From positions 25,544,001 to 25,608,000 of the forward strand of contig OZ024761.1 of assembly GCA_964016885.1 (NCBI GenBank): 64,000 nucleotides of DNA, in the 5' to 3' direction. Of the stretch, positions 30,967 to 54,698 are shown piece after piece. A model generated the notes under the pieces. The model was not told where the DNA came from. It saw nothing but the letters and a program-made list of their open reading frames with translations, and did no database searches. The position numbers were made by a program, and so were the translations under genes. The first letter of the stretch is position 1; each line of letters starts with the position of its first letter. The DNA is from Eledone cirrhosa. Lineage: Eukaryota.

Positions 30967-31299
30967 ATATATATATATATCAAACGAAATGCCGATGTCT
31001 GGAACATATCAATAATAGCAATAATAATAATAATATATGCCTAGGGCTTATTTTAACTTATAGAACCTGGTAGATACAATATCTTTACAGATATTCCAGT
31101 CTACATGCGGCTATTGATAAGGTGAGAAAAGATAAGATTGATGTATAATATGCAAATATCGAAATATATTGGGAAATAGCTTTCTACAAGTCGAAGAGCA
31201 GTTCCTCCATATCGGCTTATTTCCAGATTTCCAGTAGTCAATGGATAGGCTACAATGTTAAATGCAGCTGGTCTTTTGGGTGATAGGGATTAATTAAAA

Positions 31300-32065
31300 T
31301 AATTGTTTCTACTTCTGGCACAAGGCCAGCAATTATCCCAGTGCATTACTGCTTCTTTATTTTATCTAGCCCGTTAGGATGAAAGTCAAAGTTAACCACG
31401 GCGGGATTTGAACTCAGACCGTAAAAGGACGTAACTATGCTGGAAACTATGGCGTTCGACCCTCTACCGATACGGCCAATCCACCAATAATGATAATTGT
31501 TTCTACTTTAGGCACAAGGCCAGCAAATTACCCAGTGCATTACTGGTACTTTATTTTATCGACCCCGTTAGGATGAAAGTCAAAGTTAACCACGGCGGGA
31601 TTTGAACTCAGACGGTAAAAGGACGTAACTATGCTGGAAACCATGGCGTCCGACCCTCTAGCGATACTGCCAATCCACCAATAATGATAATAACAACAAT
31701 TTTTTCTACTTTAGGCAAAGGGCCAACAATTTTAGGGGAGGGGAAAGCCGATTGAATCGAACCAGTGCATTACTGGTTCATTATTTTACCGAAACTGTGT
31801 TTGGCGCATAGAGTTACGGCCCTTGCCATTCTGAGTTCAAATCCGCCGAGGTTAACTTTGCCTTTCATCCTTACGGGGTCGATAAAATAAAGTACCAGTA
31901 ATACACTGGGTATTTGCTGGCCTTGTGCCTAACGTAGACACAATTATTTTACCGAAACTGTAAGGTTGAAAGGCACAACTAACCTCGGTTGGATTTGAGC
32001 TCAGAATGTAAAGGTCCATTATTATGCTGCAAAGCAGGTGTCTGACGCTCTACCGATTCTGCCAT
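31300..32065. mobile_element. SINE-1 cluster: tandem pair (31300-31485, 31494-31679, -) and a long form (-) split by an inverted young copy 31799-31945 (+)
   Basis: 19-bp TSD attattttaccgaaactgt at 31780 and 31943; the tandem pair shares private variants (gttaggatgaaagtc, aaccacgg). Confidence 0.85.
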
Positions 32066-38085: not shown

Positions 38086-38794
38086 GTGCTATTATATTAT
38101 AAATACATACATATATATATATATATTTCTTTCTATGTAGTATACGTATATATAGTTATATATATATATATATATTTATTTTGCGCAACCCAGAGTTATA
38201 ATCCTGAGGTCAATTTAGTCAACCTTTTTACTTTCCTCAGAATTACTTGCCTCGTATGGCTTGTAATTCATCTAGCAGCCCTTATCCTTATTATTACTAA
38301 CTTACTATTTCTATATTTATTATTATTAATACTACTACTATATTGGTAATATCATTAACATTGTGGCACTCGTGTTGCCATTAATTTCTATGAAATTACC
38401 CTGAGAGAAACTTTATAAACTTAGCTTCTACGTATGAAAACACACGATGTATGGTTGTATTTATCAAAGTGAAAACTGTTAAGAAATTACATTTTTCAAA
38501 GCTACAACCATAAGTCTGGTTTCTGATTCTAACATTACACGATATAAGAGAAAGCAAAACATCACATCATATAATTTTCTATACACACACCTTTTCTATT
38601 GTTAAACATCTTTTGAATGTGTGGGTTTTCATTACGATAACCTTCCAAAATACCTTGAGAGAAAGTCAGAAAATGTTAACTTCATAGCGAAAAACAGACT
38701 GTATGGATGAATAAAAGTGAAAATTGAATAAACACAGCTTTTGAAACTACAGACAAATCTGTTTTCTGTTTTTTAACATCTCATTACATTGGTG

Positions 38795-39118: not shown

Positions 39119-39389
39119 CATATTACAGAGATTAAACACACCACAGCATATATACACACGTTTTCTATTGCGAAAAATCTCATTAATACCATATTAGTTC
39201 ATAAGAGTATTGTTTTCTATAAATTTCCTTGAGAGAAATTTTGAAAATTTTAACTTTGCCGTTCATTTTTCCGAGGTCGAAAGATGGTATACAAGTTGCA
39301 TTGTTGATATAGTTGACATTTCCCTTCACCTCATATTTTAAGCATAAAGTAGAAAATATTAAATGTAATCCGAGTGTTTCGAATATTAA

Positions 39390-39618
39390 TAATTGTTTCT
39401 ACTTTAGGCACAAGGCCAGCAAATACACAGTGCATTACTGGTACTTTATTTTATCGACCCCGTAAGGACGAAAGGCAAACTCAACCTCGGCGGGATTTGA
39501 ACTCAGATCATAAAAGGACGTAACTATGCTGGAAAGCATGGCGTCCGACCCTCTACCGATACTGCCAATCCACCGCACTGGGTAATTGCTGGCCTTGTGC
39601 CTAAAGTAGAAACAATTA
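39390..39618 (-). mobile_element. Full-length SINE-1 (39390-39575) with an inverted extra tail at its head
   Basis: 39575-39618 is a SINE tail in + orientation. Confidence 0.85.
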
Positions 39619-40041
39619 TTAATATTCGATTCGTTTGCAATTATGAAAACAGCCTCTTTAAGTAATATCAGTATAATGACCACTTTCTTGCTCTTGTGTT
39701 GGTATATAAACACAACGGAAGGCACTAATGTTTCTGGGTATTGACCCTTCATCAGTACCGTATACTGCTTACCTGCCAACAGTCAGAGCAAGTGAACATA
39801 TATGATATATTCTGAAATATATAGTGACTGATCAGCCTGTTTTGGATATTAGCAGACTGCCTGATCAGTCAAATCTGCATTTTAGCAGACCCACTGATCA
39901 ACCACATTTGCCTATCAGCAGATAGGCCAGTCAGTTTCATGTATAATGGCCGGCTTTGCCATATTCTAATAACTAACAAATAGTTTTATCGCTCTACATG
40001 GTTGAATACAATAAATATAACGTGAGCTTTTCGAATATTAG

Positions 40042-40232
40042 TAATTGTTTCTACTTTTGGCACAAGGCCAGCAAATACACAGTAGATTACTGGTACTTTA
40101 TTTTATCGACCCCATAAGGATGAAAGGCAAAGTTAACCTCGGCGGGATTTGAACTCAGAATGGCAAGGGCCGTAACTCTATACGTCAAAGCATGGCGTCC
40201 GACCCTCTACCGATACTGCCAATTCACCGCCC
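40042..40232 (-). mobile_element. Full-length SINE-1 with TSD tattagtaat
   Basis: A and B boxes, core, flanking direct repeat. Confidence 0.85.
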
Positions 40233-40510
40233 TTATTAGTAATAATATTAGTAATAATATTCGATTCACTTGCGATAATGTCAACAGCCTCTTTAAGCCA
40301 TGTCAGTAGAATTGCACATACATTATTGCTCTTGTGTTAGCATATAAACAGAAGGGCATACACTAAGGTTTCTCGGTGAAATATAACTTCAGAGAAGTTA
40401 TAAAACGTTGACCCTGGAACCTATGATACTTGAATGTATCAAAGTGAAACAATCACATTTTTAAAACTTCATATTTAAATATGCTGCGATTGTAATAATA
40501 GATTAAAAGA

Positions 40511-40702
40511 TAATTGTTACTACTTTAGGCACAAGGGGCCAGCAATAACCCAGTTCATTACTGGTACTTTATTTTATCGACCCGGTAATGATGAAAGGCA
40601 AAGTCAACCTCGGCGGGATTTGAACTCAGATCGTAAAGGGACGTAGCTATGCTGGAAACCATGGCGTCCGACCCTCTACCGATACTGCCAATCCACCGCC
40701 CT
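40511..40702 (-). mobile_element. Full-length SINE-1 with 17-bp TSD
   Basis: atagattaaaagataat / atagattaagagataat flank the element. Confidence 0.85.
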
Positions 40703-40984
40703 TTATAGATTAAGAGATAATAACATATTGTATCTTATGAGGTTTTCCATGATTACACTTCTCATTACTATATGTGAGCTCTCATTACTATATGTGAGCT
40801 TTCATTATTGGCATTTGATATAAACATCCCCGCAAGAATGTTAGAAACCCTTAATTTCTTGGTATGAAAAAATAACAAACGATGTATGTAAGTTTGTATA
40901 AATCTATCGACGCGAAAATATATGAAGTAATCACATTTTTAAAACTATAATTTTACAGCAGTTCTCTGATTCTAACATCAAGTA

Positions 40985-42175
40985 TTTTCAATTTTGCGAG
41001 TTGTATAATCTGTACTTGGTCCGAAAAATGTTGTTGTTCCTCCGTATCCTTGCCAATTTGGCCATCACTACCATGTTTGTGGCAATCCATGTGGCATCTT
41101 TTGACAATAGTCTGAATATGGACACTTCCTCCAATGAATGTCCGTTCATAGTTATGTTGACACAGATGTTACTTGTGCTAATCCCCATTACTTTGGATTA
41201 CTCGGAGCTGACTTCAATTCCATATTCTCCTGCTCTTTCAACAAATTTGTTGGTCATGTCTTGGAGCTCGTTGTTACTATTTGCTATGAGGTCAATCTCA
41301 TCTCAAACTGTAGGTTACAGACAGGTCTACCATATGAGGTCAATCTCGTCTCAAAACATAGGTTATAGACAGGTCTACCATATGAGGTCATCTCTTCTCA
41401 AAACATAGGTTATAGACAGGTCTACCCTATTTATTCCATCTCGTCTGCAAAACGCAGGTTATAGACAGGTCTACCATATAAGGTAAATCTCATCTGCAAA
41501 ACGTAGGTTATGGACAGGTCTATCATACTAAGTCAATCACGTCTGCAAAACGTAGGTTACAGACAGGTCTACCATATCACGCAAATGTCGTCTGCAAAAC
41601 GTAGGTTACAGACAGGTCTACCGTATGACGCCAATCTCGTCTGCAAAACGTAGGTTACAGACAGGTCTACCATATGACGCCAATGTCGTCTGCAAAACGT
41701 AGGTTACAGTCAGGTCTACCGTATGACGCCAATGTCGTCTGCAAAACGTAGGTTACAGTCAGGTCTACCATATGACGCCAATGTCGTCTGCAAAACGTAG
41801 GTTACAGTCAGGTCTACCATATGACGCCAATGTCGTCTGCAAAACGTAGGTTACAGTCAGGTCTACCGTATGACGCCAATGTCGTCTGCAAAACGTAGGT
41901 TACAGACAGGTCTACCATATGACGCCAATGTCGTCTGCAAAACGTAGGTTACAGTCAGGTCTACCGTATGACGCCAATGTCGTCTGCAAAACGTAGGTTA
42001 CAGTCAGGTCTACCATATGACGCCAATGTCGTCTGCAAAACGTAGGTTACAGTCAGGTCTACCATATGACGCCAATGTCGTCTGCAAAACGTAGGTTACA
42101 GACAGGTCTACCACCGACAGAAATTGAGATATCATTGTCGTTGAGGGTTTCTATCACGATTTGTTCGTCTTCCTG
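40985..42175 (-). pseudogene. RTE-clade LINE reverse transcriptase fragment, decayed
   Basis: Minus strand reads EQIVIETLNDNDISISVGGRPVCNLRFADDI and, after the array, IDLIANSNNELQDMTNKFVERAGEYGIEVSSE*SKVM...ITMNGHSLEEVSIF...MAKLARIRRNNNIFRTKYRLYNS, typical RTE RT domains 5-7 and downstream region. Confidence 0.85.
41286..42113. repeat. 49-bp tandem minisatellite, 17 copies, made from the RT catalytic motif
   Basis: Unit gacgccaatgtcgtctgcaaaacgtaggttacag(t/a)caggtctacc(a/g)tat; 17 units counted; reverse complement encodes GRP(V/D)CNLRFADDIGVI. Confidence 0.95.
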
Positions 42176-44379: not shown

Positions 44380-44439
44380 CACACATATGTGTATTTTTAT
44401 TCGTGTCATTAAACCTTGAAATCAAACTGACAATTATAA

Positions 44440-45330
44440 CCATCGTCAACAATAATTATCATCATCAACATCACATTCCCTTCATCACATCATCATCATC
44501 AACATCACATTCCCTTCATCATATCATCATCATCATCATTGTTACCATCACTGTGTGTCCCCTTCACCAAGCCTATAATCCCCATCAAACTCATCAATAC
44601 TGACATCAATTTCATTCACCCGAACATCACTATCATCATCGTGAACATTATCAACATAGGCCATCATCATCATCATCAACAACAACAACGACAACACTGT
44701 CATATTCAAGTCAACCCTATTATCAACATCATCATCATCATCATCACCATCATCAAATATAACATCATCATAACTGCCATCATGTCAATCATCAAGACGA
44801 ACATCACTATCATCACCACCACATCCATCGCTGTTATCACATTCATTAACCATATCACTATCATCATCATCATCATTAATGTATATCATCATCAACCCTG
44901 TATGACCTTCACTCATTATTATCATCATCATAAGGGGCGGTGGATTGGCAGTATCGGTAGAGGGTCGGACGCCATGCTTTCCAGCATAGTTACGTCCCTT
45001 TACTATCTGAGTTCAAATCACGCCGAGGTTGACTTTGCCTTTCATCCTTACGGGGTCGATAAAATAAAGTACCAGTAATGCACTGGGGTAATTGCTGGCC
45101 TTGTTAAAGTAAAAACAATTATCATCATCATCACCATCACTGACTTCGTTTTCATCATCATCACCAATGTTACAATTCCCGTCACGATAAACGTTATCAC
45201 TTCCATCATCAACACTAGCATCATCATCAACATCATCGCCATCATTATCTAAATCTCCCTCATCATAATCATCATCATCATCATCACCATCATCATCGTT
45301 AAGATCAGCATCATAATCATCACAATTGTC
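44440..45330. repeat. Degenerate (CAT)n low-complexity tract
   Basis: Recurrent catcatcat runs. Confidence 0.8.
44935..45120 (+). mobile_element. Full-length SINE-1 inserted in a (CAT)n region
   Basis: TSD attatcatcatca on both sides. Confidence 0.85.
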
Positions 45331-47345: not shown

Positions 47346-47665
47346 TCTCTATATATATATATCTATCTCTCTCTCTATATATCTATCTCTCTCTCTATAT
47401 ATATATCTCTCTCTCTATATATATATCTCTCTCTCTATATATATATCTCTCTCTCTATATATATATCTCTCTCTCTATATATATATATATCTCTCTATAT
47501 ATATATCTCTCTCTCTATATATATATCTCTCTCTCTATATATATATCTCTCTCTCTATATATATATCTCTCTCTCTATATATATATCTCTCTCTCTATAT
47601 ATATATCTCTCTCTCTATATATATATCTCTCTCTCTATATATATATCTCTCTCTCTATATATATA

Positions 47666-47714
<49 letters not shown>

Positions 47715-47791
47715 CTCTATATATATATATATATATATCTCTCTCTCTCTATATATATATATATCTCTCTCTCTCTATATATATATATATA

Positions 47792-47824
<33 letters not shown>

Positions 47825-49535
47825 CTCTCTCTATATATATCTCTCTCTATATATATCTCTCTCTATCTCTCTCTCTATATATCTCTCTCTCTCTATATAT
47901 CTCTCTCTCTCTATATATCTCTCTCTCTCTATATATATATCTCTCTCTCTATATATATATCTCTCTCTCTATATATATATCTCTCTCTCTATATATATAT
48001 CTCTCTCTCTATATATATATCTCTCTCTCTATATATCTCTCTCTCTCTATATATCTCTCTCTCTCTATATATCTCTCTCTCTCTATATATCTCTCTCTCT
48101 CTATATATCTCTCTCTCTCTATATATCTCTCTCTCTATATATCTCTATCTCTATATATCTCTATCTCTATATATCTCTATCTCTATATATCTCTATCTCT
48201 ATATATCTCTATCTCTATATATCTCTATCTCTATATATCTCTATCTCTATATATCTCTATCTCTATATATCTCTATCTCTATATATCTCTATCTCTATAT
48301 ATCTCTATCTCTATATATCTCTATCTCTATATATCTCTATCTCTATATATCTCTATCTCTATATATATCTCTATCTCTATATATATCTCTATCTCTATAT
48401 ATATCTCTCTCTCTATATATATCTCTCTCTCTATATATATCTCTCTCTCTATATATATATATATATATCTCTATATATATATCTCTCTCTATATATATAT
48501 CTCTCTCTATATATATATCTCTCTCTATATATATCTCTCTCTCTATATATCTCTCTCTCTATATATCTCTCTCTCTATATATATCTCTCTCTATATATAT
48601 CTCTCTCTATATATATCTCTCTCTATATATATCTCTCTCTATATATATCTCTCTCTATATATATCTCTCTCTATATATATCTCTCTCTATATATATCTCT
48701 CTCTATATATATCTCTCTCTATATATATCTCTCTCTATATATATCTCTCTCTATATATATCTCTCTCTATATATATCTCTCTCTATATATATCTCTCTCT
48801 CTATATACCTCTCTCTATATATATCTCTCTCTCTATATATCTCTCTCTATATATCTCTATCTCTATATATCTCTCTCTATATATATCTCTCTCTATATAT
48901 ATCTCTCTCTATATATCTCTATCTCTATATATCTCTATCTCTATATATCTCTATCTCTATATATCTCTATCTCTATATATCTCTATCTCTATATATCTCT
49001 ATCTCTATCTCTATATATATCTCTCTCTATATATATCTCTCTCTATATATATCTCTATCTATATATATCTCTATCTCTATATATCTCTCTCTATATATCT
49101 CTCTCTATATATATATCTATCTCTATATATCTCTATCTATCTCTATCTCTATCTATCTCTATCTCTATATATCTCTATCTCTATATATCTCTATCTCTAT
49201 ATATCTCTATCTCTATATATCTCTATCTCTATATATCTCTATCTCTATATATCTCTATCTCTATCTATCTCTATCTATATATATATCTATCTATATATAT
49301 CTCTATCTATATATATATCTATCTATATATATCTCTATCTATATATATCTCTATCTCTCTCTCTATATATATCTCTATCTCTCTATCTCTATATATATCT
49401 CTATCTCTCTATCTCTATATATATCTCTATCTCTCTATCTCTATATATATCTCTATCTCTCTATCTCTATATATCTCTATCTCTCTATCCCTATATATCT
49501 CTATCTCTATATATCTCTATCTCTATATATCTCTA

Positions 49536-49586
<51 letters not shown>
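47341..49586. repeat. 2.2-kb (TC)n(TA)n compound minisatellite
   Basis: Alternating TC and TA blocks with 14-20 bp periods. Confidence 0.95.
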
Positions 49587-49594
<8 letters not shown>

Positions 49595-53210: not shown

Positions 53211-53451
53211 AGTATGTAGGCGTGTATGTGTGTATCTGTGTGTATCTGAGTGTGTATATGTGTATGTGTTTGTGCGTTTGCATGTTTGCGTGTGCCATTT
53301 CATGTGCGTTTGCATGTGTGCGTTTCCACCATGTGCGTGCGTCCATGTGTGTACGTGCGTGCGTGCATGCATGCATGTGCATATGCATGTGTGTGATTAT
53401 TATGTTGTTTCAAGTGAAAAGCTGTGACCACACCCTTATATTATACAGAAG

Positions 53452-54698
53452 GGCAGTGGATTTTCAGAATTGGTAGAGGGTCGGACGCCATGCTTGGCAG
53501 CATATATTTACCTCCCTTTACAATCTGAGGTTCAGATACCGCCGAGATTAACTTTGTCTTTCATCCTTACGGGGCCGATAAAATAAAGTACCTGTAATGT
53601 ACTGTGATAATTGCTGGCCTTGTGCCTAAAGTAGAAACATATTTTACAGGCAAAGTTAACCTCCAGTTCAAATCCCGCCGAGGTTAACTTTTCCTTTCAT
53701 CCTTACGGGGTCGATAAAATAAAATACCAGTAATGTACTCTGGTAATTGCTGGCCCTTTGACAAGAAGTGGAAACAATTATTTATTAACACGGTGGATTG
53801 GCAGTATTAGTACAGCGTCAGTGTACTAATGGCAGTGGATTGGCAGTAACGGTAGAGGGTCGGATGCCATGCATTCCAGCATAGTTACGTCCCTTAAAGA
53901 TCTGAGTTCAAATCCCGCTGAGGTTGACTTTGTCTTTCATCCTTACGGGTTCGATAAAATAAAGTACCAGTAATGCACTGGGTATTTGTTGGCCTTGTGC
54001 CAAAAAGTAGAAACAAGTATTAGTACAGCGTCAGACGCCATCTTTTGCAGCATAGATTTACTCCTCTTTACGTTCTGAGTTCAAATCCCGCCGAGGTTAA
54101 CTTTGTCTCTCATCCTTACGGGGTCGATAAAATAAAGTAGCAGTAATGTACTGGTTAATTGCTGGCCTTTTCCCTCAAGTAGAAACAATTATATTATTCA
54201 GGCAAAGTTAAAGGCTCATGACATAGAGGTCATCGCATAGGGCTTGCAACTGAGAGGTGTGTTTATCACTTACTTCACGTTGCTCCAGTTTACTCCAGTC
54301 CACTCAGCTGTAGAAATGAATTGCGACGTCACTGGTGCCACCTAAGCTGTATTTGCCTCGGAAAACATCCACAGCGCGGTGAGGGGCAACATTAATTCAT
54401 GTGGTACCGCTGGTCTTCCACAAACAATTATGCTTGAACTGAGGTCGATTTAATCGACTTTCCCCTCTCTACCAAAAATTGGTGTCCTTGTACCTAAATA
54501 AACATCCAATCATTAGAAGAATAGAAATTAATTAAGGCCAGCACATACCCAGTACATTACTGGTACTTTATTTTATCGAGCCCGTAAGGATGAAAGGCAA
54601 AGTTAACCTCGGCGGGATTTGAACTCGGATCATAAAATGGCGTAACTCAATGCTACAAAGCATGGTGTCCGACCCTTTACAAATACTGCCAATTCACC
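53452..54698. mobile_element. Dense SINE cluster: four + SINE-1 copies (one nested), a SINE-2-like fragment 54270-54430, and one - copy 54535-54698
   Basis: 19-bp TSD agtattagtacagcgtcag at 53803 and 54016; TSD agaaattaat around the - copy. Confidence 0.85.

Follow-up and report, generated by a model that had tools for sequence, protein, structure and literature searches.

Among 31,472 human minisatellites, 7,276 (23%) are reported to derive from transposable elements (TEs), 601 of them from L1 (PMC3389668). According to the same source, most TE-derived arrays occupy a single locus, 94% lack a flanking direct repeat or a partial end unit, and one example consists of 17 copies of a 52 bp unit derived from AluJo (PMC3389668). 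Polar growth is there called usual for minisatellites (PMC3389668), and polar gain at MS32, MS205 and MS31A is summarised in PMC3356730. Satellites related to LINE ORF2 have also been described, namely PROsat in Phodopus, Pvc 20 in Phoca and the CR1-related HinfI satellite in chicken (PMC9659126, PMC6947457).

The array analysed here lies in a 64-kb window (the whole stretch of DNA under study) and appears to work like a TE-derived polar minisatellite, a kind of sequence already described for both its TE origin and its polar growth. We consider it very probable that it is a minisatellite of 17 units within a dead reverse transcriptase (RT) remnant of 390 bp, which arose and grew by ordinary in-register duplication and has no function. 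It resembles the TE-derived minisatellites described in PMC3389668, which are mostly single-locus, in being a retroelement piece amplified in place, with a unit of 10-100 bp and no flanking direct repeat; it overlaps a TE by at least one period, neighbouring units are alike, and its 17 x 49 bp come near in size to the 17 x 52 bp of the AluJo-derived example (PMC3389668). However, unlike those human arrays, its parent would be the coding region of an RTE-type LINE in an invertebrate, and its unit covers the catalytic motif. Four 11-nt probes detected no L1 array over that motif in the table of PMC3389668, a weak test because L1 codons may differ, and no report of an array built on the RT catalytic motif was found in the literature searched, which is likewise a weak test with subscription papers mostly outside its range.

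Like PROsat, Pvc 20 and HinfI, the array is tandem DNA made from LINE coding sequence. Those are, as described, abundant families with long monomers that are partly ORF2, whereas the present case is one short array inside the remnant of its parent. Given that satellite DNA in the strict sense has very many, genome-abundant copies and this locus has 17 units, the word 'satellite' used in a preliminary description of the same DNA was overstated for an 829-bp array at one place. Interspersed variants, turnover concentrated at one end and hybrid block boundaries are features shared with MS32, MS205 and MS31A (PMC3356730) and with MSY1 (PMC2599865), although in those systems polarity was measured in alleles and sperm, whereas here it is read from a single sequence. 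The array also differs from MSY1 in having no predicted hairpin (PMC2599865).

Tandem Repeats Finder recovers the array with a period of 49, 17.0 copies, 92% matches and a score of 1243 (Table 1), which agrees with the 17 tandem copies first described. The units follow one another head-to-tail over 829 bp and, when cut at a shared anchor, measure 48 bp (u1 and u2), 47 bp (u3) or 49 bp (the other 14); they are numbered from left to right, from u1 (41285-41332) to u17 (42065-42113). A 20-nt core of the unit has 14 matches compared with 0 in 100 shuffles. Read on the minus strand, a unit is composed of one base plus 16 codons (GRPVCNLRFADDI and three more), extending from two codons before R-P-V-C-N-L-R-F-A-D-D-I to three after it. 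The last unit, u17, and the 5' RT flank form a single minus-strand frame that ends GRPVCNLRFADDIGVI, and at the other side u1 continues in the same frame into EIDLIANSNNELQD of the 3' RT flank. Inside the young block, every frame on both strands meets a stop within 147 bp. A coding expansion is therefore ruled out, all six frames being interrupted, as had been argued from the unit length.

Table 1. Features of the array and its RT flanks (positions within the window)
Feature	Position	Strand	Basis
Minisatellite, 17 units	41285..42113	-	Tandem Repeats Finder and unit alignment
Old block u1-u6, shared derived Asp-to-Glu codon in motif	41285..41574	-	Unit alignment
u7, older member of right-hand lineage	41575..41623	-	Unit alignment, split support
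u8, hybrid unit	41624..41672	-	Conflict of column 37 with columns 42 and 44
Young block u9-u17	41673..42113	-	Three sequence types, no private change
5' RT flank, 53 bp	42114..42166	-	Homology of relatives; 8/10 conserved columns kept
3' RT flank, 288 bp, decayed	40997..41284	-	Alignment to RT relatives

The remnant that encloses the array is 390 bp of the RT gene of a non-LTR retrotransposon on the minus strand. It covers residues ~730-870, about 13% of an ORF of ~1020 aa, and this is all that the window holds; no other RT piece was found in it. When the 3' flank was used as query in a full HMMER search, 223 proteins were matched at E<=1e-3, 10 of them at 1e-10, and 147 relatives were kept from the 150 matches listed. 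The other three, two bacterial Ig-domain proteins and one repeat protein, were set aside as spurious repeat matches. Among the matches listed, 145 of the 147 relatives map back to the array locus.

Relatives found by the 3' flank only also align to the 5' flank; because they were found with the 3' flank only, this second alignment is independent support. The homology of the relatives ends at 42166, where 118 of the 133 alignments that start in the flank begin, and the opposite limit of the remnant lies at about 40997. The unit and both flanks are collinear with the RT relatives, in keeping with the proposed birth of a minisatellite from a LINE, and the RT frame is the same on either side of the array. 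The earlier view that the array lies inside an RT fragment coding on both sides thus holds for the frame, but the 5' side amounts to only a few dozen base pairs. The 3' flank has decayed, with an in-frame stop at 41198-41200 and a gap of ~11 codons near 41090-41110. Alignment of the flanks to RT, which had been presupposed, is borne out by the mapping of the relatives, but either flank alone gave no Pfam match at E<=10, RVT_1 included; word-indexed protein searches likewise returned nothing (34 candidates for the 3' flank, 4 for the 5' flank with u17). The score of 1e-35 obtained with a 3'-flank profile is circular, as the profile was built from its own matches, and carries no evidential weight.

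The relatives themselves are informative about the parent element. RVT_1 was matched at E<=0.01 in 17 of the 22 relatives scanned, and a profile of 25 relatives retrieved 166 long proteins, 120 of which were listed. Those that carry a species name are from marine invertebrates, apart from P0163, a full-length endonuclease-RT protein on a 3.7-kb contig labelled as a metagenome-assembled genome of the bacterium Plesiomonas shigelloides, a label that likely reflects host contamination of the bin. Among the 120 listed, 72 have a length of 980-1070 aa, nearly all with an endonuclease and RVT_1 and mostly on contigs of 3.1-3.9 kb. LRFADDID occurs in all 72 full-length relatives at a median residue of 753, and the profile aligns FADD with YADD of the R2 RT structure 8gh6; FADD is accordingly the RT catalytic motif. 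Homology to RVT_1-bearing LINE ORFs with the [YF]ADD motif places the remnant among non-LTR RTs.

Elements of the RTE clade are not known to carry a C-terminal CCHC knuckle, and their 3' end carries short tandem repeats instead of poly(A), together with a target-site duplication. The C-terminal CCHC pattern was found in none of the 72 full-length relatives, and no C-terminus, 3' UTR or tail was found at the 3' side of the remnant. This 3' end adjoins another dispersed repeat rather than an RTE tail (40850-40977, with further copies at 38420-38535 and 40445-40477; 68% match at 38.4 kb). RTE architecture is defined by a single ORF with APE endonuclease and RT (PMC5850137), and the closest intact relatives, unlike the remnant, have one such ORF of ~1000 aa within ~3.2 kb. 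The assignment, made by the architecture of the relatives, supports a non-LTR retrotransposon of RTE-type architecture as the putative parent. In their one ORF of ~1020 aa with apurinic endonuclease and RT, the intact relatives are like the RTE-clade elements AdLINE3 (PMC5850137) and RTE-2_OV (PMC9115989). A zinc finger is described as rare in RTE (PMC9115989); RTE-2_OV, with 1109 aa and a C2H2 finger, is set beside the remnant by its published description only (PMC9115989).

The unit phylogeny divides the array into u1-u6 and u7-u17 (support 93/91). Judged by 60 close full-length relatives, the ancestral reading of the motif is D-D-I-D-L (D in 59/60, L in 60/60). The right units keep both Asp codons and have D-L changed to G-V, and in u1-u6 the second catalytic Asp codon has become Glu, a derived state common to all six. 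Each lineage altered different ancestral codons, and therefore neither side of the array represents the ancestor. The preliminary description had taken the left units as simply ancestral, a view that fails both at the derived Asp codon of u1-u6 and in the distance from the inferred founder state, which is 4-8 changes (12% on average) in the left units and 2-4 in the right ones. IDL is indeed the ancestral state, but the statement that the six or seven degenerate left units mostly keep it is too generous, since gaggtcaat is exact in 2/7 and the D-L codons are intact in 3/7, u1-u3 only (their A is kept in 6/7, their C in 4/7). For the ten right units, gacgccaat was confirmed in all 10 along with two SNPs (7 vs 3 for each), but their order is not a strict alternation, and u8 carries one difference more. 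Moreover, the boundary placed earlier at six or seven units is sharpened to 6+11, with u7 in the right-hand lineage.

The old block contains nested shared changes, with one base missing in u1-u3, one substitution common to u2-u5 and one to u2-u3, which show that these units, too, multiplied locally in an earlier phase. Next to them, u7 is right-type at three diagnostic columns, has the SNP common to u9, u12 and u14, and carries two further changes, and u8 is left-type up to column 37 but right-type from column 42 onward. We infer that u8 is the footprint of an in-register duplication with its breakpoint inside the unit; the hybrid together with the SNP shared by u7 and u9 would fit a two-unit duplication with an in-unit breakpoint. 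Only three sequence types make up the young block, present in 4, 3 and 2 identical copies, and the block is pristine up to the flank. Its SNP pattern recurs at a lag of 5 (4/5; p about 0.04), which gives a weak hint of a multi-unit step. Across the array, a single tree cannot accommodate 14 of the 66 pairs of shared changes, as would be expected from in-unit breakpoints or recurrent change. Of the 27 distinct derived states within 41285-41623, 16 are located in columns 34-47, the last third of the unit, and u4 has six changes in ten bases. The scan p value for this weak clustering is 0.02-0.09 depending on window size; the neutral reading does not account for it, and it counts against that reading.

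Divergence is clearly graded along the array, and the polar pattern noted from the letters alone is upheld. Mean pairwise differences are 7.6 in u1-u7 vs 1.1 in u8-u17, and distance to the nearest neighbour falls with position (rho -0.85, permutation p 5e-5). Private changes number 15 in the 339 bp of u1-u7 vs 0 in the 490 bp of u8-u17 (Fisher p 1.2e-6), corresponding to 4.4% in the former and an upper bound of 0.6% in the latter; neighbouring units are also more alike than in permuted orders (p 0.0003). A young block without private change at one end and an old block at the other agree with the recent one-sided growth suggested before. For Octopus, a divergence of 0.09 is quoted as 25 million years (PMC13282606); if applicable, and it may not fit the host, this calibration would date the old block to ~30 million years and the young one to <2 million.

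Multi-kilobase noisy (AT)n tracts occur in the window, as in long-read assemblies of hard regions, and the ten near-identical units might have been inflated during assembly. However, this is very improbable. Recurring substitutions distinguish the units and follow a patterned order, every unit has its full length and an unbroken T run, a hybrid unit sits at the block junction, and 829 bp are easily spanned.

We compared the array with a toy model that favours no end and in which the duplication rate drops with mismatch. Among mixed arrays, those with the young block flush against an end numbered 0 of 10 in one run and 6 of 138 in a second (0/66 with a flank penalty, 6/72 without). The symmetric neutral model fails on the end-flush young block, and therefore either growth was biased in direction or a deletion happened, by luck, to produce the pattern. 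In this crude model a true bias to the RT-5' end seems likelier than luck, although deletion of old right-hand units could mimic it.

The favoured reading, ordinary in-register duplication, would involve the following events. An RTE-type copy may have inserted and lost, or never had, all but about 390 bp. One 49-bp stretch would then have been duplicated without flanking microhomology, and the two copies would have diverged, the 3' copy at the second Asp codon and the 5' copy at the D-L codons. Misalignment, through slippage, unequal sister exchange or conversion, probably then duplicated each copy anew, the breakpoints lying within units. The 3' lineage would have expanded early and then gone quiet, and the 5' lineage would have expanded again recently, partly in multi-unit steps, with turnover biased to the RT-5' end as in polar human minisatellites. 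On this most likely reading the array matters little; parent, founder, two waves, hybrid and polarity are all legible in one sequence, and the array is a probable polymorphic marker.

No microhomology was found at the present array junction, and a model based on a flanking short direct repeat was rejected, none being present there; the Gly-Gly-Arg and Gly/Ala-Gly-Ser codon runs, which could formerly have supplied such a repeat, lie 51 nt apart in relatives, not 49. An unlikely alternative, though the least improbable of those considered, is that the element's own RT made the first duplication at insertion by a template jump near the 5' junction, later growth being host DNA turnover; it is compatible with most of the best explanation and differs at this first step. 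The distance of 53 bp between the array and the remnant's 5' end, the junction without microhomology, and the oldest units at about 12% from the founder, little below the flank decay, are all in line with such a jump, as are the internal tandem duplications in 4/147 relatives listed and the argument of PMC3389668 that retrotransposition may initiate TE-derived repeats. However, the remnant has neither its 3' end nor a target-site duplication, its 5' end may have been created by a later deletion, and microhomology is absent in most TE-derived minisatellites anyway.

The duplications in relatives come from an off-diagonal scan, which identified four clear cases and one marginal among the 147; self-BLAST, with 0/147 internal repeats, gave an artefact because off-diagonal matches were hidden. 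In P0002 the tandem duplication over FADD has a period of 71 aa and at least three copies; in P0028 the period is 33 aa and the copy ends at FADDIDL, one codon short of the end of the array unit. P0035 and P0112 have tandem duplications further downstream of FADD. FADD duplications thus occur in 2/147 relatives, a count that indicates recurrence only and no measure of a hot spot, since the search was centred on the array region. Counting the array, there are three independent cases, with periods of 49 bp, 33 aa and 71 aa.

Returning to in-register duplication in a dead remnant, the overlap of the unit with the active site is best explained by chance, with no special cause needed: a random 49-bp unit covers the 12-bp FADD codons in 11% of placements within the 390-bp remnant and in 1.2% within the full element. 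Against pure chance, the two duplicated relatives could point to a hot spot. A bolder version, which we regard as improbable, holds that the FADD stretch in this RTE family is a tandem-duplication hot spot through the element's RT jumping back on RNA at insertion, and that hosts inflate such seeds into multi-copy antisense decoys against the living family. If it is true that duplications pile up on the RT motif across copies of the family, the array would gain in importance, since this would be a new mutational signature of RTE insertion.

The unit is no better conserved than its flanks, with 2/12 conserved columns changed in u17 compared with 11/32 in the flanks (p 0.46), and it gives no signal of selection. 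The lineage that expanded has departed least from the founder (2 fixed changes vs a mean of 5.9, p 0.07), a borderline result that selection would also yield. No hairpin above shuffles was predicted in the six sequences folded (z -0.46 to +0.60), and hairpin-driven slippage is accordingly ruled out as a cause, no fold being better than shuffles. The 25 longest inverted repeats shown for 39-44 kb all lie clear of the array. The window has no Rfam match and no tRNA, and none of its 117 non-repeat frames of >=52 aa matches Pfam, a survey that short exons would escape.

These observations also bear on the speculation that the array has been kept or expanded through transcription into piRNAs or siRNAs against active RTE elements, which would matter more if it were true that the array feeds such RNAs. 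The young units are within 2-4 changes of the inferred founder with the motif codons kept, and RTE families are described as recently active and transcribed in Octopus, which may not be the host (PMC9115989, PMC13282606). However, this scenario is highly improbable. The repeats are direct and have no fold above shuffles, neither an Rfam match nor a Pfam-matching frame accompanies them, and their conservation is not in excess of the flanks; in a TE-rich genome, no array would be required, as RTE remnants would themselves provide such RNAs. Moreover, the motif is conserved at the protein level, which does not imply the nucleotide match to active families on which small RNAs depend.

Growth in place, as assumed by in-register duplication, can further be set against a dispersed origin, in which a non-autonomous RTE derivative bearing the tandem unit was copied round the genome. 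Multi-locus TE-derived repeats do exist, comprising 185 of 5,932 clusters as reported in PMC3389668, and the internal deletion of the remnant is typical of such derivatives. Nevertheless, a dispersed origin is improbable here, as no second copy of the unit or the flanks was found in the 64-kb window, apart from a downstream non-RT stretch of the flank region; in addition, the remnant is without the 3' end that RTE mobilisation needs, and the old-to-young grading argues for growth in place.

No gene was found near the array, and tandem repeats make up 41% of the window. Long degenerate AT-rich simple-repeat tracts occupy 11005-17288 (6.3 kb) and 47350-49587 (2.2 kb, 16-bp period), and a degenerate (CAT)n tract at 44430-45322 holds a 212-codon low-complexity open frame with no sign of a gene. 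A dispersed SINE-like family of ~195 bp has 29 matches between 2915 and 63256, 75-93% alike and on both strands (for instance 39389-39579, 40042-40234 and 40510-40702), and it has no Rfam or tRNA match. Its copies are often clustered or head-to-tail, as in the 194-bp tandem at 31299-31691 and the four in a row at 53449-54195. Smaller arrays of different age are also present: three diverged 33-bp tandem copies at 39825-39923, 70-76% alike, form an older one, and fresh short tandem duplications are seen at 40760-40807 (20 bp x 2.4) and 26521-26592 (35 bp x 2).
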